Source: a virus (Duplodnaviria > Caudoviricetes). Taken from it: a stretch of DNA of 64,000 nucleotides. A program made the translations under genes and the position numbers. This document shows, piece after piece, positions 3,303-64,000 of this stretch (position 1 is its first letter; each line of letters opens with the position of its first letter). The notes below the pieces were generated by a model. That model ran no database searches. It was given only the letters and a program-made list of their open reading frames with translations, and was not told the DNA's origin. Location of the stretch: IMG/VR virus record IMGVR_UViG_3300023170_000014, positions 1 to 64,000 of that record, one strand, 5' to 3'.

Positions 3303-3752
3303 ATGCAAACATTTCTTCCACATTCCAATTTTTATGACACTGCTGCTGTACTTGACTGGCGTAGGCTAGGCAAGCAGCGTGTTGAAGCCAAGCAGATCCT
3401 TCTTACTATTGATCGCGGTGATGAGGCTAAGGGCTGGAAAAATCACCCTGCTGTTAATATGTGGCGCGGCTACGAGCCTGCTCTTGCTATGTATGGCGCT
3501 GCTATTTGTTCTGAGTGGATTCAGCGTGGCTATAATGATACGCAACTAGCATGGTTTCTTGAGCGTATGCCTGCTAATGAATATATCGTCCTCCCTCCGT
3601 GGCTAGGCGACGAGCGGCTTCACATTTCTCATCAATCTAATCTTATTCGTAAAGATCCAGATTATTACAGTCCACTATTTGAAGGAGTATCCGCCGATGT
3701 GCCATACTACTGGCCTGACCCCAGAACAGATAGAGTTCTACAGACAATATAA
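3303..3752 (+). CDS. MSMEG_6728-family / pyrimidine dimer DNA glycosylase (endonuclease V-like)
   Basis: MQTFLP..LDWRRLGKQRVEAKQ..GWKNHPAVNMWRGYE..PPWLGD..HISHQSNLIRKDP..Y..PYYWP signature. Confidence 0.85.
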   Translation: MQTFLPHSNFYDTAAVLDWRRLGKQRVEAKQILLTIDRGDEAKGWKNHPAVNMWRGYEPALAMYGAAICSEWIQRGYNDTQLAWFLERMPANEYIVLPPWLGDERLHISHQSNLIRKDPDYYSPLFEGVSADVPYYWPDPRTDRVLQTI

Positions 3753-3941: not shown

Positions 3942-6900
3942 ATGGACCAAGAAGTTTATGATGTTGTTGAACGAATAAAAAATGAATTTAGTATAGATCT
4001 AGAGTCTTTAGTATCCGACTATGTTGGAAACTTTAACCCATCAATTAGAGAACCTGAAATTTGGAAATTTTTTAAATATTTTTTAAATTTTCCAGAAAAA
4101 GATGACCCCGAGTACGAAACTAAATTTTTAATTTCTTATAGAGAAATGATGAATTTTGATTATAATGCAATGACTTCTGATTTCCACGATTTAGTAGACA
4201 ATTGGGTTGAACAAAATTTAGGCCATTTTGAAGATAGTTTTTACAAAATTTATGATGAATATTCAAATATTAAACATATTGTAAGTTCAGAAGAAATTAA
4301 AAAATACCCTTCTGAAATTGATAATGCCATACAAGACTTAGTAACAAAATTCTGGGCAATTAAAGCAAAAAAAATGCTTGTTGATAAAGCAGATGAATTG
4401 TTTGAATATATCTTAACTCCAGAATATGTTAGCCAAAAATTAAAAGATGAATATAAAAAACATCATCTTGAAAAAGATAGAAATGTTCATCCAGATCAAG
4501 AGATGTTAGATATATATAATTTAAATAAATCAAACAAGTTAAGCGGTCATTTAGACCCAATTGCGTATATTACAAATGGCGGCGAATATCTTTGCCCTTC
4601 TTGTGCTGAAAAAGCGTATGGCTTAGATGAATCTGGTCGTTGGCCTCAACAACAACCAGATGGCTCTCCTAACCCAATTGCTCCGTGGGATGAATGGTAC
4701 AACTATCATGAAGATGATGCTCCATATCAAATGCTCACTTGTGTAGATTGTGGGGAAACAGTAGACGATTTCCTAAACGAATCTTCAGTTGATTGGGAAG
4801 ATGAATTTGGTGGGCTTGATGAAACTGAAATTGAGGCTAAAAAGAAATCTTACCGACAGGCTCAAAAAGATTTCTATAACCGCTGGACTCAAGAGAAACA
4901 CAATCAACAAAGACAACAAGAAATAAAAGATAAATGGGAACCGGCTAGTTGGTGGAAGGGGTCAAGTTCAGACACAGACCCATTAATAATTGCTGAAAAA
5001 TTTGCAGCAGCCTTTTTTAGAATCTCTTTAAGTGATTTTATTAATGAATATTATCAAAAGTCTTTTTTACGATATCACTCAGATGAAGCCGCAGCAGAAG
5101 AAACATTAAAATTTTTAGGATATGGAAACCCAGAATGGTTTAAACCATTTGACGACTTTATTAAATGGCATATAAACAATTTTGGAAATAAAAATATACC
5201 AAAAAATTCTCTTTTGAAATTTAAAAAAGATGCTTACGAAATAATCATAAATAAATTTCAAAGCATAATAGAAAATTACAGAATAAATATAAAAAAAAGA
5301 TTAAATAATTCAAATAAAAATATTTCTATTTCGCCTGAAGATATGAGTTCTGAAGAATATGATATACAAAATAATAAAAAACGTCAAAAAAATATTCAAG
5401 ACAAATGGGAGCCGCAAAGTTGGTGGAAAGGTTCTGCTCGCAACCCAGACATTCAAGAAAGAATCTGGTCTGAAACTTACGATGATGATGACGATTACGA
5501 CAGATTTTTTAATATAATGGAAAACGGCCAGTCGTTTGATTATTTTGTTCAAGAAATAAATAAAGTTATTGATCGTATGAACGAAGAAGAAAATGATGCT
5601 GTCAATTTAATTGAACGCAAAGATGTTGATTATCAAGAACTTTGGGATCAATGGGGATTCGAATACCAATCTGAGCAGCCAGAACCAGATGATATGGGTT
5701 ATATTCCTTCTAATCTCTATGACTTATATAACCCACTCCCAGAAAATATGGAAACTAATCTGGGGCCAGAGGCAACAGATAAGAACGAAGCCAGAAAGCA
5801 CCGTAAAAGAATTATTGACAAATGGGAACCAGCCGACTGGTGGAAGGGTTCTAAACGGAAAAGGGTTATTGCAGCCACCCCTGAATTAATTCAAGAGATG
5901 AAAGATAAGTTCTATGATCTTGAACAAGTTATAGTTGAAAGTTATGTGCAGCAGAAAAACAAAAGCATAACTGTTAACCCTACCAATCTACGGTACTGGG
6001 AAAAGGCCGATATTATTAGTGATTTGGTGACAGATAAAAGACTTCTTTCTAACGATCTTTTTTATCTTGAAGACGAAGTACATAATTTTGCCGATAGTTT
6101 TGTTAAACGATATAATATTAAAGATGAACAAGTAGTAAAAGAAAAGTTTATTGAAGCCGTCGAAGAAGAAATTTACGGAATTATTGATAGATATTCAAGG
6201 GATATCTATGATGCAATTTATGAAGATGCAAAAAGAGTGGGAAAAACAATTGCCTCCTACTTTATGGATTTTGACCCGGCTGAAGTAAAAAGTTGGCCGA
6301 TTGCGGCTAGACTGGACGAAATAAAAAATATCGAAGAAGGACATTCTAATCTTCTTGAATATGCAAATATGTGGGACTTTGATGAAGTTTATTCTTTTCA
6401 CAATGCCGCTGAAGTTCTTCAGGAAGCCAGTCTAAACAGCGGATACGATGATTGGAGCGAGGGGTTAGACGAAGGATTTCGGAGTAATATTAGTGTGCGA
6501 AAGATGGAAGACTCTTTGGGAGCAGACGCAAGACATTTGTATGAACCTGTTGACCCCTCACGAGAGCCGTACCTTGGCCCAGAAGAGACAGACGAAAATG
6601 AGGCCAAGAAACATCGCAGAGATATCGCTGACAAATGGAAGGTTGATTACGACCGATCAAAGGGAGACAGATTAAACTGGGCAACAGAAGAAGATTTCCC
6701 TAAAAAACCTTGGGACTTTACCTCTAAAACAAGTAGCCCTTTAGACTCACGCGACGAACACTACGTTATATTTAAAAATCAAGATGATTATGGGTCTGAC
6801 ATATGTAAAGATTGTGCCCAAAAGTATATGCAGTATCTAAAACCCGGAGATTATATTGACTTTGAAGGTGGTTCTTACCCCTCGTTATTTAAAGATGAAT

Positions 6901-9900
6901 ATCCCGATGAAGATGATTGGTGGAAGCAATGTGATGAATGTGGTAAAAATATAAACAAAAATTGGGAACCTACTGAAAAAGAAATTAAAAAAAGTTTACA
7001 TCCAATTCTTGATAGTATAAACGATCAACTTGCTAATCGCCAATATGATAAACAAGAATGGCTTTCATATTTTCCTTCCGCTATTCCTAAAATTCAAAAA
7101 GTTTTAAACGAATTAAAAAAATGGGTTGATAAATACCCAGAAGTTCAATTTATGGAAGATTGGTTTGGCAATAAAACAGATATCTTTGAATATTTTGAAA
7201 AAATTATAGAAACTGGTGCAAAAACTTCAGAAGAGTGGGATCGGCGTCAAGAAAAAGCCAACGAAGTACTTCATCAAGAAATTAACGAAGATGAACGTAA
7301 AAAGAAAACAGAAGAAGTAAAAGAAAAATGGGAACCCGAAGAATGGTGGAAAGGCTCTCATACTAAACAATCAAACGACAGAATAAATAATAATTTTTAT
7401 GATCCAGAAGAATATTTATTAGCAGAATATGCCAATCTTGCAGGAAAATCTCTTGGGTTAAATCCAAAAAATATAGCATACTGGGAAAGAGCGCAATTCC
7501 TTGGAATGTATGAAAGGCTAAAACAAAGCCTTATTGATGAAGCAGAAAGATATTTTTATAATACAGTCCCAGAAGAACTAAGAACTGAAGAAAACAGATG
7601 GGAATTTTTTGAGTATATTGAACAGTCTGTTCGGAATCTTGGAATAGAATATGCACAGATTATTGAAGAATCTGTTAATCAGGCAGGATATCAAGAGGGT
7701 AAATATTTTGCTGAATATGTAATGGATCTGTCTGAAAATTCTGTTAGGTACTGGTCTGTTAAAGATAGAATTGATTACTTAGAAAACCTTAAAGAAGGAA
7801 AGACTTCTTTAATAGAAGATCATATTTATGAATCTAATGCATACAATGAACTTCGTGCTGCAACAGGTTATATTGAAGAAGGAGAACCTAATCCCTATAT
7901 TCAAGATCCTTATTTTCTTATAGAAGAATTTTATCTTGACGTTGATGAAGGATTTTGGGAAAATATTGATGAAGAAAGGCTAAGAGCGGCATTCTCAGAG
8001 AGTGCAAATATCTCCGAATTATATAATCCTGTGCCAGAAAGTAGAGAACCCTATCTTGGCCCTGAAGCAACAGACGAAAATGAGGCTAAAAAACATCGCA
8101 GAAATATAGCCGATAAATGGAAAATCCAAACGGAACGCAAGCCGGGGCAAAAACTTGAGTGGGCTAGCGAAGACGACTTTCCTAAAAAAAGATGGGAGAG
8201 TAAGGTAGCATCTGATTACTCTACTCAAATTCAAAAAGAAATAGAAGAACTAGCAAAAGATGTTGCTCCATATCCCATAGATTATATGGATGCTTATAAA
8301 GATACCGCTTATTCTGATTTAGAATTTGTGCAAGACTCTACTTATAGAGATGCAATTTATGTTGCCGAAGATAGCATATCAGAAGCAATTTGGAGAGACA
8401 TTTATGATTATCTTGAAAGCCCTCAAAGCGGCGTTTCTCCAGAATTAAGAGAATTATATGATAATGATACAGATTTAATTTATGATATAGAAGATTTAGC
8501 AAGAGAGCATGTAGATTGGGAAGACACTAATAGATATTTTGCAAATCAGGCTATTGATGAAGTTAGAGGCGACATATTTCATTTTGTTAAAAAAATTCGC
8601 AATGATTTAACAAATTTAACAAATGATAAAATAATTTGGTTAGAAGAAGATATGCTTCTTGAAAGGTATCTTTCTTTCGAAATGAATAGTTTAGACTTTT
8701 TAGGATTCTTAGACGAAGCGCTTAATGGTTGGGATGATTTATCCGATCAACTTAACAAACTGATAAGTGTATATGAACCTATTAATAACTATGTGTATAA
8801 CGAGTTAAACAAATACGCTCAAGATTTATTAAATGATAGTAAAGTTTTAAGTTTATGGCCTACTGTAATAAACAACATTGAACGTTTTTATGACCCAGTA
8901 GACTCAGACGCCGAAGCCTATCTTGGTCCCAAAGAGACAGATGAGAACGAGGCTAAAAAGCATCGTAAGAAAATTAAAGATAAATGGAAGATTCAGACAT
9001 TGCGTGGATCTGATGAGCCTTTAAATTGGGCAACTGAAGAAGACTTTCCTAAAAAGCCTTGGGATTTTACTTCTAAATGGAAGATTGCAGGGGGATTTGA
9101 AGATTTATATACTCAATACTACAATCAATTAGAACAAAACGAAAATCAAACTAAGCAATTAATTGAAAAATATGCATTTGATGTTGTTTTAGAAGATCTT
9201 CCATCAATGGGAAGCGGTTTTACCGTTGAAAAATATCCAGATAGAATGGAAGTTGTTCCCAATCAATTAAAAATGGAACGGCTTCATGATTCGTGGATAG
9301 ACTTTACAAATCATCAAAAATTATTAGAATCACTATTCCCTGATTGGAAGAAAAGTTATTATTCTTTCAGCGAAACAAGAATTATAGCAATTGAAGAATT
9401 TATTAACAATAAAATGCCCGACTTGCTTCAAAAAATGGAAAGCATGTATAATTATATCTCTCAAGGGCGTTTAAGTGGAGAATCGGATGATGAGATTAGA
9501 GCAGGATATGAAAAACATTTTCAAACAAAAGTTTCTGCTATGCCCAATCAGTTCCTGCCTCGCCTTTATCATACAATGATAGAAAATCTTAAGAAAACTG
9601 CGACGTTTGATTGGGAATCTGAAGCAACTGTATTTGAAAAGGTTAAAGTTGCTTACGAAATATTATATAATTGGTATGATTATATTGATGAAATCAAAGA
9701 AGAAAGTGGTTACAATGGCCCAGCATATGATCTTGATTCATTTATCCAAGATGCATTTATTGATATTTTTACGCCAATATTTGAATCATTGATGTATATA
9801 GATGATGATGAAATACATAGTCAGTTTGAAATAATGCATAATAATGTTCGTCAAACTGCATTTGGCGGTCCTTATGCTATTAATAACGCTTTGTACGAAG

Positions 9901-12900
9901 TTTATACTGAAACTGGATACGAGTTAGACCATCAAGATCACCCCAAGTGGACTCCTTCTGATATTGTAGACTTTTATGAAAATAAACCAGAAAGAAATGA
10001 ACAAGAAGAAGAAGAGTTAAGAAGATATAAAAATCTTGACAAATGGGAACCTGAAAGTTGGTGGAAGGGTTCTAAAAGGAAGATTGTTGCAGCAGATGAG
10101 TGGGATGAAGAAGAAGAGGAAGAAGAGGAAAAAGATATTAGAGACTGGTCAGAAATTGACTGGATGATTCTTCAAGAAGTTCAAACTATAGATGGAGATT
10201 CGATTGTTACCTCTTTTCTTGAAGATTATGACTGGGAAGATATAGTTTTTGAGCAGTTAGTACCATTAGGTGTGTGGTCTGACGAGGCAATTTTTAAAAA
10301 ATATGTTAACTCCTTAGTTAATAATTCAAATCCTGAAGAAAATCTTGCAATAGAATGGGCAACAGAAGAGGCGGGACGTTGGTTTGAATATTTTGTAGAA
10401 ACAGCAATTGATTTTTATATAAATATTGAAGATCAGTTAACTACAGAAGAATATGAAGAACATTGGGCAGACATAGAAGATACTATAAGACAATATTTGT
10501 GGGATGAAGCACATGATTATACTGGAGAACTAGAAAGACGAGCAGAAATAGAAATAAACCATGTTTTAGGTGGTTATAACATTGCTGAAGCATTTTTTGA
10601 AAAATGGAAAGAGCAAAGACAGAGAGAGCAAAATGATCGTAACATTCACCCCGATCAAGAAATGATGGATCTTTATAACGTAAAGGGTGAGTTGCCCGAG
10701 CCAGAACCTGCTTCTCCAAGTCCACAAGTTGTTGATTGGATGAGGCAACAATCTAAAACTGCTTCTCAATATGAAAATTGGTCTACTCCAGAAACAGAAA
10801 TTTTAGTTGAACAAATATTATCGGACTCAAGAATATTGCGTCCTTCTATTAAGACAATGGAAAAGATTGTTCGTCAAGGTGGCTCTGTTCAAGACCTTGC
10901 TAATTGGATGATTGAAAATGTGCTTAATCCTTATAATCAAGGAATTGCTCAAAATTGGGAAAATATATCAGACGAACAAGATGTAGAAGCCCAAAAAAAT
11001 GAACTTAGAAAAACATGGAAACAGCAAGCAAGAAAACAGTTTCCGTTTAGTTTGCAAAAGCAAAAGCAATATGTTCAAGAGATGGAACAGATGCAATTTG
11101 GTTTCTTTGGAGAACCAGAGCCAGAAGATATTGAAAGATATTTACTTAAAGTAGAAAATATAAATTGGCAAGAAATTTATGACTGGGTAAAAGAAGATCT
11201 TCAATATCGTGGTAAGATCGCTTCTCATGACGACTATACTGACAGTACAAAACAAATTATAAATAAAATAATAGAAGAAGTTCCTGTTCTATTACCTCAA
11301 AGAGCCGGGTGGGAAGCCTCTAGAATTTTAAAAGCATGGATTGATAGATATAACACTGATAGATTAAATAAACATTACGATAAAGAAAAAAAAGTATGGT
11401 TGGACGATGATGGTGAGATAATTTCTCCTTTAAATACATATGAAGAAAAAATGATTCATTTTCATCAAACGGAAGAAAATCGTTTAATTAATAAAAATCA
11501 ATTAGGATTAGGAATTGAACAACTCAGAACTATGGCAGATAATGTTTTGAAAGATGAAGTTTATTGGGTTGGATCGTTTAAAACAGAACTTCAATGGCTT
11601 ATTCTGGATCGAATAGAATATTATATGTTAGAGTTAGGATATTTAGAAAAAAAGATTATATTAAAAGACATATTTGATATTACAAACACAAAAGAAAATG
11701 AATTAATTTATAATAATGCTTTTTATAAAGCGTGGGATGAGACATTTAAAGAAGAAACATCTTCAAAATTATCTAAATGGAAAATTATTTCATCTGACTG
11801 GGATGAAGAAGAGGCTCAAATAGACTTTTTGCTTAATGACCACGAAGATCAAGTAATTGAAGAGTCGGAAGACTTAAAATCTTCAAAAAATGCTTTAGTT
11901 GCTGATAATATTCGTTTTCAAGGTGTTGTTAATGGATTTCATAATGCACAAACAGCGTTAGCCAGAATTAATTATAATGAACTTAATAAATCAGACGATT
12001 ATGTTGAACCAGATAGACATTACAATCCAAACCAATTAGAATTATTTAGAGAGAGATTAAGAAATAATTTTGAACCAATAATTGTTGGAGAAGGCGTTCG
12101 TATTATAGTTAAAAATTATACTCATTTTTTTGAAAAAACAGATATTCCCAACGATGACTGGGAAAAATTCTGGGAAATACTAGAACAGAGTTATAAGGCT
12201 GGTTGGGAATATGGCATAGTTCACAACTACATAGATTTTAATAAACTTAATAATAAAGAAATAATTAATATTGCAAAGAAAACAAGTTCTCATGGGCAAA
12301 GACAAATGGCAATTGGAGATGAAGTTGCAGAAACAACCTTTGAAGGAATTCCAGATTCTATTGAAGAAGATGACAAGCCTGAAGAAAAAGTCATTAATAA
12401 TAAAAAATGGAAAATAGTTCGTCCTAAGCATAATCCACAACCAGCAGAATATGCAAGACCAAAGGGACAATGGGGTATGTATTCAAAAACCGCTATGTTT
12501 GAAAATAGTGAATTTACAGACTCTTTTGTTAGAGAAAAACTTATTCCTGCAAGAAAATCTCTCCCAGAAGTTACAAAAAAAGAAGCGATTAGAAAAGCAA
12601 AACAAATATGGGAACAATTTGAAAATCACCCATTTGGAAATGCAATTCCCGGAAGTAGTAATGAACAATTAAAATATCTTGTAGATGATATAGATCTATC
12701 TTCATCTGGGATAACTCAAGAAACTCTTAATAATCGTTTTTATGATCCAAACCAAGTTGACATTTTTAGAGAAAAAAGATTAAAACAACTTTTTGAAAAA
12801 GGAATTTCAATTGAAAAATTTTATATTTATTATCTTCTACAAATAGCAAAAGAAGCGTTGTGGAATCATCTTTTTAATAATACAATGCCTGTTTATGAAA

Positions 12901-13652
12901 TGGATCAAGCAGAAAAAGAATTGATGAATTCTTTATCAAATGATGATAAAAATAATCTTTATCTTATATTTAAAAATACTTATCACGAAGAGTTTAAAAG
13001 ATTATTTAATGGTAACAAAACTTCAGCAAATAAAAAAGACGCATGGGAAGCCGTTCTTGATGGAGAGATGGGCCACGATATCCTCACTACTGGAAGTTGG
13101 GAAGAAGTAAAAAAACAAACCCTCAAGTGGCTTAAACAACTTAAAGACGGATATATAAATAAAGAAAATCCTCATGATAATGAAAAGATTGATTCCGAAG
13201 CAAAAGAGCAAGACGGGCATGCAATGGAAGATCTAAAACTTTACGAAGAAAAGAAGCGCTGGTCATTCCACTTTGATCATGGCAAGCATCCATATGATCT
13301 TATCATTCAGCCTGTTGGATATAAAGAATCAAATAATAATTGGAGACACGGAGACTGCGACCTTTTTGCAATAAAAAAACATCAAGAAACAGGCTGGCCG
13401 ATCTATAAAATTGCTGAAGGGCCAAATGACGGGGCGTGGCACTTTTTCTTAATTAATCCCGAAACTGGAGAAGGATTAGATGGAGATGGTCTTAGACCTG
13501 TAGAAGAAATACTTCAAGAACACGATCCAGACTTTAATCCTGAATACGAAGAACTAGGAATTTACCCTGATGTTTTTGAATCTTCGCTAAAAGAAGCAAT
13601 AAATTACAGAAAAGGATATAAAGAATCTAAATTAAAAGAAATATGTGTATAG
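3942..13652 (+). CDS. giant acidic modular protein (putative virion polyprotein / polyvalent protein)
   Basis: 3236 aa open frame; ~20 modules separated by K-x-A/S linkers; repeated peptide tags; two double-CxxC modules; C-terminal Cys-His-Asp module. Confidence 0.85.
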   Translation: MDQEVYDVVERIKNEFSIDLESLVSDYVGNFNPSIREPEIWKFFKYFLNFPEKDDPEYETKFLISYREMMNFDYNAMTSDFHDLVDNWVEQNLGHFEDSFYKIYDEYSNIKHIVSSEEIKKYPSEIDNAIQDLVTKFWAIKAKKMLVDKADELFEYILTPEYVSQKLKDEYKKHHLEKDRNVHPDQEMLDIYNLNKSNKLSGHLDPIAYITNGGEYLCPSCAEKAYGLDESGRWPQQQPDGSPNPIAPWDEWYNYHEDDAPYQMLTCVDCGETVDDFLNESSVDWEDEFGGLDETEIEAKKKSYRQAQKDFYNRWTQEKHNQQRQQEIKDKWEPASWWKGSSSDTDPLIIAEKFAAAFFRISLSDFINEYYQKSFLRYHSDEAAAEETLKFLGYGNPEWFKPFDDFIKWHINNFGNKNIPKNSLLKFKKDAYEIIINKFQSIIENYRINIKKRLNNSNKNISISPEDMSSEEYDIQNNKKRQKNIQDKWEPQSWWKGSARNPDIQERIWSETYDDDDDYDRFFNIMENGQSFDYFVQEINKVIDRMNEEENDAVNLIERKDVDYQELWDQWGFEYQSEQPEPDDMGYIPSNLYDLYNPLPENMETNLGPEATDKNEARKHRKRIIDKWEPADWWKGSKRKRVIAATPELIQEMKDKFYDLEQVIVESYVQQKNKSITVNPTNLRYWEKADIISDLVTDKRLLSNDLFYLEDEVHNFADSFVKRYNIKDEQVVKEKFIEAVEEEIYGIIDRYSRDIYDAIYEDAKRVGKTIASYFMDFDPAEVKSWPIAARLDEIKNIEEGHSNLLEYANMWDFDEVYSFHNAAEVLQEASLNSGYDDWSEGLDEGFRSNISVRKMEDSLGADARHLYEPVDPSREPYLGPEETDENEAKKHRRDIADKWKVDYDRSKGDRLNWATEEDFPKKPWDFTSKTSSPLDSRDEHYVIFKNQDDYGSDICKDCAQKYMQYLKPGDYIDFEGGSYPSLFKDEYPDEDDWWKQCDECGKNINKNWEPTEKEIKKSLHPILDSINDQLANRQYDKQEWLSYFPSAIPKIQKVLNELKKWVDKYPEVQFMEDWFGNKTDIFEYFEKIIETGAKTSEEWDRRQEKANEVLHQEINEDERKKKTEEVKEKWEPEEWWKGSHTKQSNDRINNNFYDPEEYLLAEYANLAGKSLGLNPKNIAYWERAQFLGMYERLKQSLIDEAERYFYNTVPEELRTEENRWEFFEYIEQSVRNLGIEYAQIIEESVNQAGYQEGKYFAEYVMDLSENSVRYWSVKDRIDYLENLKEGKTSLIEDHIYESNAYNELRAATGYIEEGEPNPYIQDPYFLIEEFYLDVDEGFWENIDEERLRAAFSESANISELYNPVPESREPYLGPEATDENEAKKHRRNIADKWKIQTERKPGQKLEWASEDDFPKKRWESKVASDYSTQIQKEIEELAKDVAPYPIDYMDAYKDTAYSDLEFVQDSTYRDAIYVAEDSISEAIWRDIYDYLESPQSGVSPELRELYDNDTDLIYDIEDLAREHVDWEDTNRYFANQAIDEVRGDIFHFVKKIRNDLTNLTNDKIIWLEEDMLLERYLSFEMNSLDFLGFLDEALNGWDDLSDQLNKLISVYEPINNYVYNELNKYAQDLLNDSKVLSLWPTVINNIERFYDPVDSDAEAYLGPKETDENEAKKHRKKIKDKWKIQTLRGSDEPLNWATEEDFPKKPWDFTSKWKIAGGFEDLYTQYYNQLEQNENQTKQLIEKYAFDVVLEDLPSMGSGFTVEKYPDRMEVVPNQLKMERLHDSWIDFTNHQKLLESLFPDWKKSYYSFSETRIIAIEEFINNKMPDLLQKMESMYNYISQGRLSGESDDEIRAGYEKHFQTKVSAMPNQFLPRLYHTMIENLKKTATFDWESEATVFEKVKVAYEILYNWYDYIDEIKEESGYNGPAYDLDSFIQDAFIDIFTPIFESLMYIDDDEIHSQFEIMHNNVRQTAFGGPYAINNALYEVYTETGYELDHQDHPKWTPSDIVDFYENKPERNEQEEEELRRYKNLDKWEPESWWKGSKRKIVAADEWDEEEEEEEEKDIRDWSEIDWMILQEVQTIDGDSIVTSFLEDYDWEDIVFEQLVPLGVWSDEAIFKKYVNSLVNNSNPEENLAIEWATEEAGRWFEYFVETAIDFYINIEDQLTTEEYEEHWADIEDTIRQYLWDEAHDYTGELERRAEIEINHVLGGYNIAEAFFEKWKEQRQREQNDRNIHPDQEMMDLYNVKGELPEPEPASPSPQVVDWMRQQSKTASQYENWSTPETEILVEQILSDSRILRPSIKTMEKIVRQGGSVQDLANWMIENVLNPYNQGIAQNWENISDEQDVEAQKNELRKTWKQQARKQFPFSLQKQKQYVQEMEQMQFGFFGEPEPEDIERYLLKVENINWQEIYDWVKEDLQYRGKIASHDDYTDSTKQIINKIIEEVPVLLPQRAGWEASRILKAWIDRYNTDRLNKHYDKEKKVWLDDDGEIISPLNTYEEKMIHFHQTEENRLINKNQLGLGIEQLRTMADNVLKDEVYWVGSFKTELQWLILDRIEYYMLELGYLEKKIILKDIFDITNTKENELIYNNAFYKAWDETFKEETSSKLSKWKIISSDWDEEEAQIDFLLNDHEDQVIEESEDLKSSKNALVADNIRFQGVVNGFHNAQTALARINYNELNKSDDYVEPDRHYNPNQLELFRERLRNNFEPIIVGEGVRIIVKNYTHFFEKTDIPNDDWEKFWEILEQSYKAGWEYGIVHNYIDFNKLNNKEIINIAKKTSSHGQRQMAIGDEVAETTFEGIPDSIEEDDKPEEKVINNKKWKIVRPKHNPQPAEYARPKGQWGMYSKTAMFENSEFTDSFVREKLIPARKSLPEVTKKEAIRKAKQIWEQFENHPFGNAIPGSSNEQLKYLVDDIDLSSSGITQETLNNRFYDPNQVDIFREKRLKQLFEKGISIEKFYIYYLLQIAKEALWNHLFNNTMPVYEMDQAEKELMNSLSNDDKNNLYLIFKNTYHEEFKRLFNGNKTSANKKDAWEAVLDGEMGHDILTTGSWEEVKKQTLKWLKQLKDGYINKENPHDNEKIDSEAKEQDGHAMEDLKLYEEKKRWSFHFDHGKHPYDLIIQPVGYKESNNNWRHGDCDLFAIKKHQETGWPIYKIAEGPNDGAWHFFLINPETGEGLDGDGLRPVEEILQEHDPDFNPEYEELGIYPDVFESSLKEAINYRKGYKESKLKEICV
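4929..10073 (+). repeat. dispersed DKWEPxxWWKGS peptide repeat (copies 4929, 5400, 5817, 7323, 10038; sixth at 63894)
   Basis: 36 nt units conserved at protein level with synonymous variation. Confidence 0.9.
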
Positions 13653-16600
13653 CGAAGTTTTAATAATAGAATAGAAAGATTGGATAATTATGAAAGTTGA
13701 TTTTCAAAACATAGAAGAAGGACAAAATGGTAAACTATTTGCGGTCTTAGAAGAAGACCAACTTCCGGTAGGTCAATTGTTTTATAAAGTTGATAATAAT
13801 AATAAAAATCTTATTGTAGATTATATCTATATTCCTCGTAAGTATTGGCGCGAAGGTGGAATTAGAGAACAACTTATTGCTGAACTTCAGAGTATGTATC
13901 CTGCCTATTCTTTTTCTATGAAACAAAATCAAAAACAATCTTATCTTTTAAAAGAAGCGCCCGCTCGTAGTAAAGCCCAATTTAGATATATGCAAGGTAT
14001 TTGTAATGGCTCTATTGAGCCTCCAAAGGGGATGACTCGCGCTAAGGCTTGTGAATACGTTGAAGGACAAAAAAATTATAAAAGTTTGCCGGATAAAAAA
14101 TCAGCGCGCCCATCAATCCGCGACACAAAAGGTTCTGAGTTTTTAAGAGATATTATCGCTGAATACGTTGGGGGAGAAAGCGTAGCATCACTTGCAAAAA
14201 AATATAATGTTTCTACAAATGCAATTAAAAATTATTTACAAGAAAACAATATTCCTTCTAGAAGTCTTAAGGAGCATAGGCTTCATCCAAAAACAAAAAA
14301 ACAAACGCCGCCAATTCGGGAGCGTGTTCCAAACAGAAAACAAAAAAAACTTCTTGTACCCAAAAAACAAAGACCAGATACTCTTCCTAATTTTAAATTT
14401 AAAACAGATCATGATTTATTAATAGATGAACTCCCTCAAGAATTACAAGACGAAATTAATGAAAGAAAGAAATTAGAAGAAAGTGGAGAAGTCCCATTTA
14501 TTCCTCAAATGAATTGGGCAAGCCCCTATTCTGGCGACTATGTACCTTCTGCATCAGAAATACTTGGCGATAAAAAAATGAAACCTAAAGAAAAATATAG
14601 AAGTGAAAAAATTGCAAAGTCTACTCTTCATAAAAATGTTCATACAGGGAAACCATGCACTTGTGGTTTTTATAGACCAGAACAAAAACAATCTAAGTGG
14701 AAACAAGTAACCGCATCTAAACTAGATAAGATTATTAAAGACGATCCTAAAGTGCTTAGAACAGAAGAGGGGCAAAAGGTTCTTGACTGGATGAAAGGTC
14801 TTCCCGAAAAAGTTGATGACTTTCTGCCTTGGATTGTAAGAGAATATAAAAAGAAAAGATTAGAACCTTCAATGGTTGGAGAAGGCGAAGATGCTTTTGT
14901 GGAACTGATGCAAACTACTCCCATTGAAGGAACTGAATTTAGAGGATTTTTAGACGAAGCAACTCTTTCTCATTGGGCAGATTGGTATGGAAGTAATTCT
15001 CCTACTCGTCGTGGCGTTAACATCATGGAATTTTCAGTAAAAGATATTTTTGATAAAATCCAAGAATGGGACTTAGAACTTCTGTCTCAAGGAGTTTCTT
15101 TAGATGAAGAAAAGAAAAAAGACGAAAAAATTATTTATGAGTGGCCCGATGGATGGTTTATAAGGGATCTTTCACCAGAAGAGTGTGATTATGAAGGTCA
15201 AACTATGCAACACTGTGTTCGTCGTCAAGGATATGGAGACAGAATAGAACAAGGTCTAATAAAAATTGTTTCTTTAAGAAGTCCAAATAATAAACCTCAC
15301 GCTACTTTAGAAATAAATAAAGACGGCTCTATTCAACAAATTCAAGGAAAACAAAACCTTCACCCTCTTGCAAAATATAGAAAAAGAATTCGTCAATTTA
15401 TGACAGATCCCAACGGGTTTGAACGACTTTTTAATAAAAAACCGACTCTTCCCGGGGGTCGCAATATAACCGAATGGCAAGAGTTTAGAAATATGGATGG
15501 AGAGTCTAACTATGATCCAAGTATGATTGCTATTGATGAAGAAGAAGAATTTGATTCAAAATATGACGAAAATATGAGGCGACACCCTTACGCCGGTCCC
15601 GGGGGGTTTGATAGAAACTATAGACCAGAGCATTATGGAATCTATCCGCCAGAAGCAAGCCCAGATAAGCCTGTTGATATGGCAAGATTATTAACCTCTT
15701 TGCCAGAAGATATCTCTCAAGAAGATCTTCAAAAACTATTAGATTATGCAAGAAGAACGGGCCAAGTAGATCAACTTGCTAAAATAATGCAAAGTCAACA
15801 AACAAGAAATCAAGACTTATTGATAATTCCTAGTTTTGAAGATCAACGCCGTGGGGGATGGAGAGATGCTTTTGAAAAGATGACTATGACAAATCCAAAT
15901 GATCCTAATTATAAAGAAAAATGGAACGAGTGGCTATCCTCTATTTGGAGCGAAGATCCTAAACAATTGGCAAAAAATCTTGTTGAAGTTAATAAAATAA
16001 ATCAAAATTGGGGGGAATCAGGATCTGAAGATGAAAGTCGTGCAACAAGTATTCTTAAAATTATAAACAAATATAATTCAATGAATCAATTGCGTTCAAT
16101 GTTTAATCCAGAAGAAGACGAATTATTAAATTGGTCTGAGTTTGATGAAACAGACTTTTCAGATTATCGTCAAAGATTTGAACGAGGTTTACATAAGGGA
16201 GAAGGTATTTCACAATTGCCCACTAGAGTTGATGAGCAACAACTTTCACTTCTGTCTAAGTGGAGAAGGACTTCTAAATGGAAAAAGACTTCAGTTGATA
16301 ATTGGGATGATATTGAAAACGAAGAACACGAAGAACACACTCAAGAAGAGGCTAAATGGGAAGGTCAAGCCGCAGCCATGTATAATTTGTCAATAGTTCC
16401 TAATTTTATGCAATCTCAAAGCATTTCTAGTTATGGCGGCCTTTACCGCGAAGTGGGTGCTGCTAGTAAAACTCAAGATTTTTATGATAATTTTATAGAC
16501 CGCGCCTCAGAATATTTAATAGACATATTTGCAGGATCTGAAGAAAGTTGGGTTCTTGATGAGGAATACCAAGATTCTTTTTATGATGGTTTTTGGGAAG

Positions 16601-17142
16601 AAACTAATAAAAATTGGCAAAATTATATAGAAGCACTCAAATATGACATTAAAAAGAATTTACAAGATGAACCTATATATGAGGCAATAATAAAAGACTG
16701 GCCGTGGCAAGAAGAAGGAGCAATTGAAAGTTTTCAAAATACAATAGAAAAAACTAAAGAATTGGGATTAGGACATTTACTTTGGATTTTTGAACGTTAT
16801 TATTCTGAAATTTATGATAAAGCAGAATTGATGTATGCAAATGATCCTAACTTTGCATGGATAAAAGGAGAACTAGATAAACAAATTCGTGAAGTTATTA
16901 ACAACGCTGACGAAATAATTGCACAAGGGTTAGGCGCTTCAAATCCAGATTACAGTGCTGATATGTCTAAATGGTATGCTGAACCTGTTTCAAAAAGAGA
17001 AGAAGAATGGCTTGGGCCTGAAGAAACTGATCAAAATGAAGCAAGAAAGCATCGTAAAAACATTAGAGATAAGTGGAAAGTGCAGCCGGGTAAAAAACTT
17101 GAATGGGCAACTGAAGAAGATTTTCCTAAGAAAAGATGGGAA
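5727..17142 (+). repeat. dispersed ~60 aa YxP..LGPEETDENEAKKHR..IxDKWK..LxWATEEDFPKKxW repeat (6540, 8022, 8889, 16974; hybrid copy 5727)
   Basis: directly visible in the translations of the 3236 aa and 1151 aa ORFs. Confidence 0.9.
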
Positions 17143-18475: not shown

Positions 18476-19243
18476 GTGGATAAAGTTGCAGTAGTTATGT
18501 TAAATTATAATATGCCCGAAATTATTGAGCATAATATAAAAGTGTTAAAAACATCAGAAGTGCCGATGGATATTATTGTTGTTGAAAATGGTTCAGATGA
18601 AGAGTGGATGTTTGCTCCAAACGACGACGATATCCATATGGTTTATTTGGATTATAATTTGAGAGCCACACATGGCTATAGAATGGGTTTAACATATGCA
18701 AAGTCCCTTGAAGCATTAAATTGGGAAAATTATTTTGCCTATTTTATTATGACAACTACAGGGCAACTTGTTGAGGGAACAGATCCTTTATTGCCTCTTT
18801 ACACTTTCTTAAAAGAAAATGATAATGCTGTTATTGTGCAAGCCGCTCATGATGAGTCTTCAATTGGATTTTGGAAGCATCTTAGAAATAGAGGAACGGG
18901 TCAGCCTCGCCAAACTTGGATGATGGAACATTCTTGTGCTTTATTTAGAGCAGACTGGTTTGATGAATCTAACTGGCTACACCCTCTGTTATTAATTCAT
19001 GGAACTGATCTTTACTACTCTTGGCAAGCACGAAAAGATGGAAGAGGCATTTATGTCCATGAGGGGCTAGAAATGCATCGTCATAATAATAATATGTTTG
19101 AACTTGGCCGCGCTCCTGAATCTGATCCTGCTGAAAGAACTAGATTAGCAAGAAACGCTATGGATCAAGCCTTATCTATTGAGATGGGCGAGAATTGGGA
19201 AGAGCGGCTAATGAAAGAGTTTGTTCAAGAAGAATGGCTATAA
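18476..19243 (+). CDS. glycosyltransferase, GT2-like (GT-A fold)
   Basis: VAVVMLNYN..IIVVENGS..N...GY..GL..GTDLYYSWQARKDGRGIYV pattern. Confidence 0.7.
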   Translation: MDKVAVVMLNYNMPEIIEHNIKVLKTSEVPMDIIVVENGSDEEWMFAPNDDDIHMVYLDYNLRATHGYRMGLTYAKSLEALNWENYFAYFIMTTTGQLVEGTDPLLPLYTFLKENDNAVIVQAAHDESSIGFWKHLRNRGTGQPRQTWMMEHSCALFRADWFDESNWLHPLLLIHGTDLYYSWQARKDGRGIYVHEGLEMHRHNNNMFELGRAPESDPAERTRLARNAMDQALSIEMGENWEERLMKEFVQEEWL

Positions 19244-21571: not shown

Positions 21572-22198
21572 ATGTACAAAACTGCAATTGCTCACGTTGA
21601 AGGTGAACTTTCATACGATGAGGCTCTAAATAATTTTAAAACTGCTTATCCAACATACGATGTTAGAGCAGTTAAGCAATCTAATTATGGTTGGATTGCC
21701 TTTATTCAAAAAGAAGCATATCAAGATCAAAATGTTCAAGATGGCGTTCCTGCTGAAATGGATGAACTTTCAAGTCCCGGCGCTGATTCTGAAATGCTAG
21801 AAGTTGAAATTGGCGAAGGTCCAAAAGAAACTTATGGCGAAGAAGAAGAAAAGCAAGAAGGGCTTATGGAAAAACTAGAAGAGGCTCTTGATGAAGTAGA
21901 GCGTCTAGTTTCTGAAATTAAAGATTCTGAAGAAGATGAAGAAGAGGTTAGACCATTTGACACTCCAGAAGAGATGGATGACGAATTGGATCTAGAAGAA
22001 GATGTTGAAGAGATGGAAGGTATTGAAAAAGAAATGCCTCTTACCATCGCAAGAGAAAAAGAAGCCGGTGTAACTCTAAAAACTGCCTCTAGAGAAGTAG
22101 AACAACTAATTAGAAGAGAAAGAGAATTTAGAGGATACAAATTAGCAGGAATTGAAGAAAAGAAAAATAGTTTTGTTGCAAAACTTGTTAAGAAGTAA
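21572..22198 (+). CDS. acidic head morphogenesis protein
   Basis: AAGGAG RBS; Glu-rich; several KTA/KEA/KQS/KLA motifs; precedes the protease gene. Confidence 0.65.
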   Translation: MYKTAIAHVEGELSYDEALNNFKTAYPTYDVRAVKQSNYGWIAFIQKEAYQDQNVQDGVPAEMDELSSPGADSEMLEVEIGEGPKETYGEEEEKQEGLMEKLEEALDEVERLVSEIKDSEEDEEEVRPFDTPEEMDDELDLEEDVEEMEGIEKEMPLTIAREKEAGVTLKTASREVEQLIRREREFRGYKLAGIEEKKNSFVAKLVKK

Positions 22199-25275: not shown

Positions 25276-25824
25276 ATGCTTCGAATTCAAAATATTTCAG
25301 CAGCAAATCAGCAACGTACCCTCCGCGCTTTGTATGCACAAACTCAAGCGTATCCATACGCCGCAGTTCTGTCATCAAGCACTTACGGTACTGCTGGTAC
25401 TGCTACCGGAGACTTTTCAAAAGGCTCTGGAACTGCACCCGGAACTCTTGGTAACGGGCCAATCTTCCCCGGCATGGTAGCCGCACTCGCCCCCGCTGGC
25501 GAAGTTGTGTGTGTATCAGTCGGTGGAACTGCCCTTTCACCATTCGGGCTATTTGGTAACTTTATCGGTGGAGAATTTGACGAAGTTGGAGACTTTACCG
25601 AAGTCGGTGTTTGGCGCGGTCCAGCAGCCGTGTTTGAAGTGCTTTCACCAGCATTTAACTCAAACATTACTGCTGCCGATGAAGACACTGATGCAAATCG
25701 TAAACTATATGCTGACGCTAACGGTCTTCTCAACGACACAGAAGTAGATTCTGGCCCTGCCGTTGCAAGACTTATTGACTATGTAAGTGCTAGCAAGATC
25801 GTAATCGAACTGTTGAGTGTCTAA
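25276..25824 (+). CDS. capsid decoration/cement protein
   Basis: AGGAGG RBS; lies between scaffold and MCP; IFPGMVAA..PFGLFGNF..VGVW pattern; high-expression codon usage. Confidence 0.7.
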   Translation: MLRIQNISAANQQRTLRALYAQTQAYPYAAVLSSSTYGTAGTATGDFSKGSGTAPGTLGNGPIFPGMVAALAPAGEVVCVSVGGTALSPFGLFGNFIGGEFDEVGDFTEVGVWRGPAAVFEVLSPAFNSNITAADEDTDANRKLYADANGLLNDTEVDSGPAVARLIDYVSASKIVIELLSV

Positions 25825-25837
25825 GGAGAGTATGATA

Positions 25838-26803
25838 ATGGATGAAGCAAGACAGGCAATTAACAGCAGTGACTACGTTCAAAAACTTGCTGGTATGCCA
25901 AAATTAACAAATGAACAAAAGAAAGCAAAACTACAGACCATTCTTTCAGACAAATCAAACGCTATGAAGCGTCTTGGTGTCGCTATGATTGGTCCAATTC
26001 AAATTCGTCTTCGCTACGAAGGTATTGTTCGTAACGTGCTTGTAGAAGACACCTTGGAAAAGGGTCCACTCTTGCCTTACGACGTTCTTGATGACTTTGG
26101 ACAGGCTTATATTCTTAACCAGACTGACTCAGAAATCAAGATCACTCCCTTCGAAGGTAAGCAGGTTTACCCAAGACTCTTCAGAGTCGCCGCGTTCCCT
26201 CGCGTTCGCAAGGAAGACCTGTACTACCTCCGCGTAAACGCAATTGAATATGCCCAAGATGAATGTCGTCAGGCTATTCAGCGTCAAGAAGACTCACGCC
26301 TCTTGACCTTGCTTGACACCGCTGTAACTGACTGGGCTGCCAAGGAACCAAACCGCTATGCAGGTTCTGGTGGTACTGGTTCAACCACCAAGTCAATTGG
26401 TGCTGGAAACCCACTAGAAGTTGTTGACTTCTACGACCTAGTTGCTAACCTAGAGCAGCGTCAAATCGAAACCAAGCGTATTCTTATGAATCCTGCTGAC
26501 GTTCGTGACCTCTACTCATGGGACATTAACGTAACTGGTTGGCAATTCAAGGACACCGTATTCGGTGGTGGCATGATTACTGAGTTTGGTGAGTTCACCA
26601 TTCAGAAGTCAATCATGATTTCACCCGGTAACGTATACCTAGTCCCAGACCCCAACTTCTTGGGTGTCATGCCCGTCATGTACTCACTTGACGTTGAAGA
26701 GAACAACCAAGTTGAACAATTCTACCGTGGATGGGTAATGGATGAGTTGATCGGAATGCTTATCCTCAACCCCAGAGGTCTTGCCAAGATTGTCAAGGCT
26801 TAA
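25838..26803 (+). CDS. major capsid protein (HK97 fold, mycobacteriophage Bxz1-like)
   Basis: RLGVAMIGPIQIRLRYEGIVRNVLVED..YDVLDD..FPRVRKEDLY..AIQRQEDSRL..PVMYSLDVEE..GWVMDELIGMLILNPRGL; AAGGAG RBS favours ATG 25832/25838. Confidence 0.92.
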   Translation: MDEARQAINSSDYVQKLAGMPKLTNEQKKAKLQTILSDKSNAMKRLGVAMIGPIQIRLRYEGIVRNVLVEDTLEKGPLLPYDVLDDFGQAYILNQTDSEIKITPFEGKQVYPRLFRVAAFPRVRKEDLYYLRVNAIEYAQDECRQAIQRQEDSRLLTLLDTAVTDWAAKEPNRYAGSGGTGSTTKSIGAGNPLEVVDFYDLVANLEQRQIETKRILMNPADVRDLYSWDINVTGWQFKDTVFGGGMITEFGEFTIQKSIMISPGNVYLVPDPNFLGVMPVMYSLDVEENNQVEQFYRGWVMDELIGMLILNPRGLAKIVKA

Positions 26804-62840: not shown

Positions 62841-64000
62841 ATGCAATATAGATTTATTTGGAATATAGATCAAGATCAAATTCACTTTGTAAATAATTTT
62901 GATTTTGAAGAACCCCTAGAAGATAATTATATCACAGGAGACTATCTTCCTGCTGATAAATCTATTTCTTTATATAAAGAAGATGTTAAAGTTCCAATAA
63001 ATTTAGATTATTTTGTTCGTCTATGGAAAGCGTCTGAACCAGATAAAGAGATTGTTAGAGAAAGAGTAGAGGTAGTGAGTTTAAATAAAGTTTCAAACGT
63101 TAGACTTGCCTCAAGTCAAGAAGAAAAGTTGGTCGCCCAGTTTTTAATTGCTGAACATGGTCAAGATAGTATGTTAAATCTAGATAAACTTTTTGAAGCA
63201 AATCCTACTCCCGATGATGTAAGAAGATACTTTATTCCTTTTATAAAGAAGTTTAATCAAAACACTTTTAAGCAATTCCCTGACAACCTTCCTAGAAACG
63301 CAAAGCAATGGAGAGCCTTATCAGAAGAAGAAGTTTTTGCTTATGTAGAATATTTTGCAAATAATATATCAAGAGGCGATCAACAACTTGCTAATTCTTT
63401 AACTCAAGCAATGATGGATAAATGGGAAATGGATGGAGTTCCATTTGATCCTGCGGAATATATCATAGATGAGGGAATGATAAACTGGAATGAAGTTCGA
63501 TCTTTACTATTAAGAGAATTTGGCAATTCATTTAATTTGTTTTCTAAATGGGAAAAAGTTTCTGACTATGGAGGCTGGACAAACTGGGAAACGTTTTTGA
63601 CAAATAACATTATGGAAAACGAATTTAATATATATAAATATTTTTTAGATTTAGCAAAAAAAGCCATTAGTAAATACCCAAGTGAAACTTTTTTTGAATT
63701 AAAAGAAGTTTGGCGTGAAAAAATTGAAGAAATGGTTATTGATGTACATAACAGAACCTGTGACGAAACAGAACGAATTGATGATATTCTGAAAGTAGAC
63801 TTTGATGAAATTTTAGGTCATTGGTTTGAAAAAGTAAACGAAGAATTAGGTTACGATGAAGTTTATTCTTTACAAAGAAAAAATCAAATTCTAGATAAGT
63901 GGGAACCCGAAAGTTGGTGGAAAGGGTCTAAATGGAATAAAATCTCAGATCATAATGGCTGGACAAACTGGGAAACTTGGAACGTTAATCTTATGATGGA
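62841..64000 (+). CDS. third modular polyprotein, 5' part (runs off window; not in ORF track)
   Basis: open frame from ATG 62841 to window end; linkers NKVSNVRLAS, SKWEKVS, SKWNKIS; DKWEPESWWKGS at 63894; GWTNWET modules. Confidence 0.85.
   Translation, partial: MQYRFIWNIDQDQIHFVNNFDFEEPLEDNYITGDYLPADKSISLYKEDVKVPINLDYFVRLWKASEPDKEIVRERVEVVSLNKVSNVRLASSQEEKLVAQFLIAEHGQDSMLNLDKLFEANPTPDDVRRYFIPFIKKFNQNTFKQFPDNLPRNAKQWRALSEEEVFAYVEYFANNISRGDQQLANSLTQAMMDKWEMDGVPFDPAEYIIDEGMINWNEVRSLLLREFGNSFNLFSKWEKVSDYGGWTNWETFLTNNIMENEFNIYKYFLDLAKKAISKYPSETFFELKEVWREKIEEMVIDVHNRTCDETERIDDILKVDFDEILGHWFEKVNEELGYDEVYSLQRKNQILDKWEPESWWKGSKWNKISDHNGWTNWETWNVNLMM

Follow-up and report, generated by a model that had tools for sequence, protein, structure and literature searches.

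The stretch of DNA analysed here (the window) comprises positions 1 to 64,000 of the IMG/VR virus record IMGVR_UViG_3300023170_000014 (Caudoviricetes), and it raises a simple question: why should the modules of very large phage proteins end in the same few short peptides? An earlier reading of the sequence alone (the original prediction) had described these peptides as four types of C-terminal address tag, reused on unrelated modules. The modules belong to P1 (3942..13652), a modular polyprotein of 3236 amino acids (aa) with about 16 modules, a net charge of -280 and 3.15% Trp; to P2 (13690..17145), of 1151 aa and three modules, with a PcfJ-like domain at residues 483-567; and to P3 (62841..64000, continuing to contig position 64412), a modular protein of 523 aa that contains DUF7249. 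We find that the tags are most likely short linear motifs, conserved in sequence and carried by the flexible C-terminal tails of modules, directly before a stop codon or before a second conserved peptide, which we call the joint. The open reading frames (ORFs) most likely constitute a polyvalent-protein-like array in an uncultured myovirus, upstream of its protease-scaffold and capsid genes, with P3 as a satellite. All of these genes, and every tag and joint located below, lie on the + strand. A single contig of 76,390 bases, of which the window forms the first 64 kb, has no terminal repeat, so the genome is partial.

The tags and the joint

Types 1 to 3, and a chimera of types 2 and 1, were found exactly where the original prediction had placed them. 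The type 1 pattern [DE]KWEPxxWWKGS occurs in frame at six of six sites (4929, 5400, 5817, 7323, 10038 and 63894), and KWEP..WW, sought in all six frames of the window, finds those copies and no others. They are the tags at 4929..4964 (DKWEPASWWKGS), 5400..5435 (DKWEPQSWWKGS), 7323..7358 (EKWEPEEWWKGS, carried by the zinc-ribbon module F) and 10038..10073 (on module H2), the last part of the chimera and, in P3, the tag that stands with its joint KWNKISD at 63894..63950. Type 2 is 56-59 aa long and is present on module E (6540..6716), on the E paralogue E' (8022..8198), on module G (8889..9065) and at 16975..17142, where it forms the true C-terminus of P2 and ends at the stop codon, as had been claimed; the P2 orthologues P0006-P0008 end in the same way. 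The chimera (5727..5852) consists of the N-terminal part of type 2 (5727-5816) fused at I-x-DKW to type 1 (5817-5852), and its residues 590-628 are 64% identical to residues 1355-1393 (E 4e-14). Type 3 stands at the end of module A (4476..4520, DRNVHPDQEMLDIYN) and of module A' (10635..10679). The type 4 motifs do lie inside their modules, J (12021..12053, YNPNQLELFRE) and K (12741..12773, YDPNQVDIFRE), although each begins one codon after the position first given for it (12018 and 12738). A six-frame search of the rest of the contig gave no further tag copies. The letters HPD in type 3 were considered as a J-domain motif, and this was ruled out, the orthologues reading TPD, HPN, HPE and NLD.

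Judged by their sequences, the four proposed types are two families, DKW (types 1 and 2 and the chimeras) and DRxxxPxQ (types 3 and 4). The DKW family is characterised by a basic helix, I-x-DKW and a Trp-rich tail, and it is in the tail that types 1 and 2 differ. The two types are linked by the chimera, by intermediates in P0021 (DKWEPKGQWAEESDFK..PWEFNS, then KWK), and by a shorter form found in four orthologues, RKRKxDPENWRQS with KWK behind it. Types 3 and 4 have the common core DR-x-hydrophobic-x-P-x-Q. The pattern [DN]R.{3,5}[DNE]Q has 35 matches in 12 proteins, where about 5 are expected from a composition estimate.

Selection on the peptide, proposed at the outset from third codon positions, is borne out. 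Between type 2 copies the synonymous differences (pS) are 0.67-0.91, which is saturated, while the non-synonymous differences (pN) are 0.19-0.26; pN is 0.03-0.25 between type 1 copies, and for the paralogues E and E', compared over their bodies, it is 0.48. Since synonymous sites are saturated while non-synonymous differences are low, the tag copies are old and the peptide is under purifying selection rather than evolving neutrally. The saturation also excludes recent duplication or gene conversion of the tags. In most comparisons of orthologues the tags are more conserved than their own modules. Type 2 on module E, in four orthologues, is 83-93% identical, against 60-94% for the body, with P0015 level (93 vs 94); the corresponding values are 71-79% against 47-72% for type 1, and 39-67% against 21-32% for type 3 on A'.

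The joint appears to be the more basic and more widespread element, to which the tags would be secondary. It reads K-x-S-K-W-K-(K)-[IV]-[SA]-[AS], often with an acidic run next, and it divides the modules in 14 of 14 related giant proteins; its 4-8 residues are almost invariant. The patterns used to count it were set after the data had been seen, and with them [SG]KW.?K was found 64 times in the 14 proteins, against shuffle means of 0.01-0.12 per protein, and K[IVT][AISV][ASG] 11 times in P1, against 1.14 expected, a count reached in 0 of 1000 shuffles. A stricter joint pattern is matched by no ORF of at least 100 aa in the contig besides P1, P2 and P3. The joints of P1 are located at 5853..5876 (KRKRVIAA, which is KWKRVIAA in the orthologues P0015 and L002), 6723..6737 (SKTSS), 8199..8213 (SKVAS), 9072..9095 (SKWKIAGG), 9525..9539 (TKVSA, which is SKVAA in orthologues and there lies directly behind a type 2 tag), 10074..10094 (KRKIVAA, then an acidic run), 10752..10766 (SKTAS), 11211..11225 (GKIAS), 11772..11795 (SKWKIISS) and 12402..12419 (KKWKIV). 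P2 has joints at 14692..14715 (SKWKQVTA) and 16273..16293 (SKWKKTS), and SKWEKVS at 63543..63563 is, with KWNKISD, one of two in P3. A -1 frameshift at the AAA-rich codons of the joint was also considered and was ruled out by reading, since KWKI joints have no slippery heptamer.

A catalogue made by regular expression holds 61 joint-like sites in the 14 proteins, a few of which, for example GKTIAS within module E, are probably not joints. A tag precedes 29 of these sites (5 type 1, 16 type 2, 2 other DKW and 6 DRxxxPxQ) and 32 have none, and all 23 of the DKW tags in the catalogue abut the joint directly. For type 3, the orthologue P0018 has a KWKRVSAD joint immediately behind the motif of module A. 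In six P2-type proteins (P0002, P0005, P0006, P0007, P0008 and P0010), the natural stop falls exactly at the end of type 2. The claim that types 1-3 sit just before a linker thus holds at module C-terminal edges near a joint or stop, but it fails for the type 1 copies at 4929 and 5400, which have no KWK joint after them, and at 7323, which has no recognisable joint behind it. Four orthologues retain a joint even after the last module, with only 16-20 residues then remaining to the stop. This argues for a cleavage site, because a spacer would be needless there.

The middle of type 2 contains DKWK[VI] (6630-6641, 8112-8123, 8979-8990 and 17068-17079), which resembles the joint SKWK[IV] and looks like a degenerate copy of it; type 2 may derive from a duplicated joint. 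In a variant, P0010, the joint SKWK is fused directly to the second half of type 2, which looks like a deletion between the joint and the internal DKWK site.

Module bodies and distribution

The bodies of 22 modules, with the tags removed, were compared with each other by Smith-Waterman alignment against shuffled sequences (231 pairs). Values of z >5 were obtained for I1/P3c (37.5), E/E' (19.2), P3b/P3c (17.3), J/K (5.9) and G/P2b (5.2), and the remaining pairs gave z <4.6. Paralogy thus links two out of the four type 2 carriers (E with E') and both type 4 carriers (J with K). The type 3 carriers are at best weakly similar, with a body z of 2.5; the BLAST alignment between them (26% over 117 aa, E 6e-8) is mostly due to the tag itself. 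Among the six type 1 carriers, no mutual body similarity was detected. A regular expression gave 35 DKW-family tags in 16 proteins, missing the known copy P1 2033, and the 34 bodies that were long enough fall into 15 BLAST clusters, one of which (P1 485 with P1 624) is an artefact of overlapping windows. The description of the modules as unrelated is therefore mostly right, the paralogues E/E' and J/K being the part that does not stand. Kinship at the level of the fold may still exist, because all modules are helical and acidic.

Two AlphaFold models were made. The first (P1 1863-2424, 8-row alignment) has a mean pLDDT of 62. It shows module A' confidently as a bundle of helices (pLDDT 71-92); type 3 follows closely on the last of the confident helices, where pLDDT is below 50, and type 1, joint and acidic run are coil (pLDDT 24-44, with the type 1 tag of H2 at 24-29). 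A Foldseek search of this model against the PDB gave 0 of 62 matches at E <=0.001. The second model (P1 638-1139) is poor, with a mean pLDDT of 45.7; there, type 2 is one short helix (NEAKKHRRDIADKW) between coil, and 10-residue blocks have mean pLDDT of 33-51. Types 1, 2 and 3 are thus not packed in any confident fold in the models, and the tags and joints are predicted to lie between modules, where confidence is low.

Searching with full-length P1 gave nine orthologues; these giant proteins measure 1950-2678 aa, on contigs that reach 127 kb, and the order and content of modules vary across them. I2, for instance, precedes J in P1 but follows K in P0003, P0016 and P0017, and modules A to D are missing in most orthologues. 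The modules of P2 and of P0012 (17136..18437, 433 aa), the third ORF of the array, which overlaps the end of P2, occur within single polyproteins in P0021, L004 and L006, so that P1, P2 and P0012 are one split array; the P0012 modules match P0021 at 82% over 107 aa and at 45% over 119 aa. Orthologous modules usually inherit the tag type, E with type 2, H2 with type 1 and A' with type 3. The P2c-type module departs from this: its tag is type 2 in P2 and in P0017, but in P0019 and P0020 it is of the DRxxxPxQ family. In all, the modules behave as independent units.

The most conserved module is L1 (13017..13346, P1 residues 3026-3135); its identity is 84-95% in eight orthologues but 49% in P0021, and three IMG/VR contigs have it at 89-90%. 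These contigs were found by a search with L1 and have a giant ORF at the same position. SKWK joints flank L1 on both sides in L004 and L006, and our searches found no family or function for it. The last ~100 aa of P1 (window 13332-13649) contain the pattern G-D-C-x-x-F-A ... W-H ... D, which we take to resemble papain- or transglutaminase-type cysteine peptidases, a likeness that finds no support in Pfam or the Atlas. The best ESM Atlas score for the C-terminal 211 aa of P1 is 0.76, which is uninformative, and the possible Cys-His-Asp domain is absent from 9 of 9 orthologues.

The prospect of tags found throughout phages was not realised in profile scans, which indicate that they are restricted to one small phage lineage. 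An exhaustive search of 1.84 billion representative proteins with the type 2 profile gave 7 matches at E <=0.001, six of them in the lineage; the seventh, P0013, is an FN3-repeat protein outside it and was judged spurious on reading. A word-indexed search of 5.8 billion proteins gave 8 matches, and with the type 1 profile a word-indexed search returned P3 itself and nothing else. Scans of IMG/VR gave neither type 1 nor type 2, and a scan of JGI metagenome contigs gave one locus, L002. In 50,697 phage records there was no match to the region (megablast) or to P2 (tblastn). Joints are also present in P0018, P0019, P0020 and P0022, which have no type 1 or type 2 tags, and in L004 and L006, whose capsid protein is 98-99% identical. 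No SKWK was found in the giant ORFs of relatives with a 51-57% identical capsid protein, and Myrna gp96 and gp87 have no repeated joint.

Proposed processing in the head and its alternatives

We suggest, at slightly less than an even chance, that the array is a head-loaded polyprotein that is cut at the joints, with the tags as shared C-terminal handles. The chains would enter the procapsid and there be cleaved at their joints; the most plausible agent is the prohead protease of the phage, for which P0011 is the candidate enzyme. Each module would be freed with a tag at or near its C-terminus, as is natural in P2, and the tags would be read by one common partner, either for loading or retention in the head or at a host target after injection. 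The joint is a plausible processing site because it is near-invariant, occurs in flexible segments and is kept after terminal modules, and because the ends of ORFs are module edges.

P0011 (22471..25218, 915 aa) is a protease-scaffold fusion, and its residues 181-335 match PHROG 18299, head maturation protease (E 1e-24). Its N-terminal part with the protease domain resembles, by eye, the N-terminus of Myrna gp97. In comparison with L004 and L006, it has an insert of 80 aa (residues 86-167) and an unrelated segment at 340-540, and the remainder is nearly identical; the variable part might co-vary with cargo. Because the segment and the insert differ from the tag-less relatives, residues 1-560 were co-folded with the type 2 tag, and the score of 0.00, obtained without controls, is uninformative either way.

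A number of results weigh against processing in the head. The expected substrates of the protease, scaffold and capsid, do not share the joint; [SG]KW.?K is absent from the protease-scaffold ORFs of relatives, including the 824-825 aa homologues of L004-L010, and there is no SKWK in the sequence of P0011. At three of the six type 1 copies (4929, 5400 and 7323) the tag is kept and the joint is lost. Since these three persist without a joint, the tag is not merely part of a cleavage site, and it may work internally. Relatives with a 98-99% identical capsid and a conserved protease have the joints and lack types 1 and 2, so that head assembly as such cannot require the tags. Furthermore, one loading signal per chain would be enough if loading precedes cutting. 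Comparison with Pfam, PHROGs, NCBIfam and PDB sequences reveals no effector domain in P1, and the neighbours of P3 are nucleotide-metabolism genes, not head genes. Finally, the structural models rest on 7-8 sequences, and low pLDDT of the tags is weak evidence for disorder.

Some of these same results suit chains that stay uncut, as full-length polyvalent proteins with modules like beads on a string, in the manner of N4 virion RNA polymerase. The joints and tags would then be connectors, providing spacing, solubility or contacts with packaged DNA. The text of PMC5512222 notes cases of polyvalent proteins being packaged or transferred without processing. The scaffold of the protease without SKWK and the three type 1 tags without a joint fit with this, as does the lack of a universal cis-peptidase, HExxH being found in just 3 of the 14 related proteins and the Cys-His-Asp candidate of P1 being absent from orthologues. 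However, a connector does not explain the joint that four orthologues keep 16-20 residues from the stop, nor the coincidence of natural ORF starts and ends with the edges of freely shuffled modules, and the 4-8 near-invariant residues of the joint exceed the needs of a spacer. We consider uncut chains doubtful.

The tags might instead be host-directed short linear motifs that dock the modules on a host hub, with type 4 as a sliding-clamp binder, and this would be compatible with processing. The consensus for clamp binding is QL[S/D]LF, more generally QxxLF (PMC12309361). In the window, QLELF of module J fits QxxLF and QVDIF of module K does not; the six orthologous copies are QLS[LIV]F, two each of QLSLF, QLSIF and QLSVF. 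Such short patterns arise by chance, with ~4 QxxLF matches expected in ~27,000 residues by a composition estimate, and conservation around type 4 extends over a block of 14 residues, more than a clamp motif would require. The likeness of type 4 to the clamp-binding consensus is a lead only. Type 3 does not fit QxxLF, and types 1 and 2 match no motif that we can name. On the other hand, the tags, like typical linear motifs, occupy low-confidence segments between domains and exceed the domains in conservation, and they are dispensable for assembly in close relatives. On balance, we regard docking on a host hub as unlikely. Similarly improbable is plug-and-play cargo, in which the joint would define the units to be cut out and a vocabulary of handles (DKW and DRxxxPxQ, including the QLSLF-type clamp motif) would set the destination in the head or at a host hub such as the sliding clamp, handles and cargo being exchanged independently by recombination at the joints.

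That the tags are the conserved C-terminal part of one repeated folded domain is very improbable. In its favour, the paralogy of E and E' spans ~290 aa and takes in the tag, J is related to K (z 5.9), BLAST similarity reaches 50-85 aa upstream of type 2 in E/P2c and G/P2c, modules E and G both begin (S/T)PELI, and every module is helical and acidic. Against it, the other type 1 and 2 carriers have mutual z <4.2 without their tags, the 34 bodies form 15 clusters, homologous P2c-type modules bear different tag families, a chimera and intermediates exist, and in the AlphaFold model neither type 1 nor type 3 packs against the confident domain next to it.

Genomic setting and known systems

P1, P2 and P0012 are co-oriented, with a gap of 37 bases and then an overlap of 10 bases, and the G+C content of the P1 and P2 ORFs is 32-36%. 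Downstream of the array are tail-fibre-like genes, then the protease-scaffold, cement protein (Pfam PF23968) and capsid protein genes, these three 5-12 kb away, and then sheath, baseplate and lysis genes; portal and terminase are absent from this partial contig. The giant ORF is kept at the same position in relatives. The major capsid protein (25817..26803; PHROG 2522, E 6e-97) is 55% identical to that of cluster C mycobacteriophages such as Myrna, with every one of the 228 records compared below 60% identity. P1 belongs to no family in Pfam or PHROG, the NCBIfam search was empty, and searches of PDB sequences with P1, P2 and the protease domain gave no significant match. Public runs labelled as salt-marsh metagenome contain the stretch. 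Metatranscriptome contigs from two studies match pieces of P1 and P2 at >=99%; as these are contigs and not reads, transcription is not thereby shown, and the parts of P1 and P2 without cover are uninformative.

Some neighbouring features deserve mention. Directly upstream of the protease gene is a very acidic ORF of 208 aa (window 21572-22198), conserved in relatives, which may encode a scaffold or an internal head protein and whose LKTASRE resembles degenerate joints. A DenV-like pyrimidine-dimer glycosylase gene (window 3303-3752) is located directly upstream of P1, a synteny that is kept in L002, and two glycosyltransferase-like genes (18476-19243 and 27672-28928) are inside the structural block. 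Beside P3, at contig 64397-68344 (L003 2398-6345), is a protein of 1315 aa with a weak nucleotidyltransferase signal and a PcfJ-like domain, and a tRNA nucleotidyltransferase-like gene is next. In contigs of three runs (X10, X11 and X13), window positions 9197 and 18179 are joined with 23 other letters between, at a depth of 4-32; a variant genome, a repeat or DNA of another organism might account for this.

The giant ORFs of L004 (5363-11920) and L006 (2921-12580) have six to eight tandem HW[IV][DE]G[FY]HAA ... RGLYNP.TGELIHM modules, and also HExxH, ParB-like and PcfJ-like modules, all divided by SKWK joints.

The original prediction had known of no tag-plus-cargo system, but the principle is in print, in the capsid targeting sequence of T4 (PMC3012670) and in the polyvalent proteins (PMC5512222). 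For the latter, Iyer, Burroughs, Anand, de Souza and Aravind (2017) predict that they are packaged in the phage capsid and injected (PMC5512222). Like them, the ORFs described here are giant and multi-modular, are encoded with virion genes, and have mosaic, fast-changing combinations of modules; where 2-15 distinct domains, mosaic among relatives, define a polyvalent protein, P1 has ~16 modules. Of four orthologues scanned, three have ParB_N, and zincin-type HExxH and PcfJ-like modules also occur among the orthologues, as PcfJ does in P2. Because of this architecture and these modules, we group the ORFs with the polyvalent proteins, although P1 itself is without a known effector domain. We found no conserved joint between modules and no shared C-terminal peptides described in PMC5512222, and the word 'linker' does not occur in its main text; its supplements could list related architectures.

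In T4, proteins IPI-III and Alt likewise represent diverse cargo with one short peptide that addresses them to the head, with processing by gp21, but that tag is N-terminal, is present once per protein, and is removed (PMC3012670). Here, the tags are C-terminal to modules, up to about ten per chain, with other sequences and in a different capsid lineage, and the N-termini of P1, P2, P0012 and P3 have no common peptide of the T4 type. In phiKZ and SPN3US, many ejection or inner-body proteins inside the head are cut by the prohead protease and ejected into the host (PMC10052503, PMC7411985), and these are separate genes with propeptides, whereas here there are chains of 16 modules. For the capsid of Myrna, we found no protease or cleavage data in PMC7150772.

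The rule for cutting in phiKZ and SPN3US is after Glu, unlike the SKWK joint. In encapsulins, short C-terminal peptides load the cargo, and the HK97 protease has a C-terminal tail of this kind; both dock cargo inside a shell of the HK97 fold, which is functionally reminiscent of type 2 at a free C-terminus, without likeness in sequence. Literature searches with the literal peptides WWKGS, DKWEP and EEDFPKK gave unrelated papers only, and no description of the joint or tag peptides was found in the literature, supplements not being covered. What sets these proteins apart is the different capsid lineage, a new joint, and the added families of C-terminal motifs, all within a small number of uncultured phages.

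Because so few relatives, all of them uncultured, have the tags, the findings are of limited practical reach. Should the tags bind host hubs, they would point to the host proteins that are attacked first. Should the joints be cut and the tags be handles, these phages would have a second, independent solution to the loading and delivery of diverse proteins by way of the phage head. Short peptides of 12-60 aa could then be tested as portable tags for packaging or host targeting, and giant phage ORFs that are still uncharacterised could be divided by rule into functional units.

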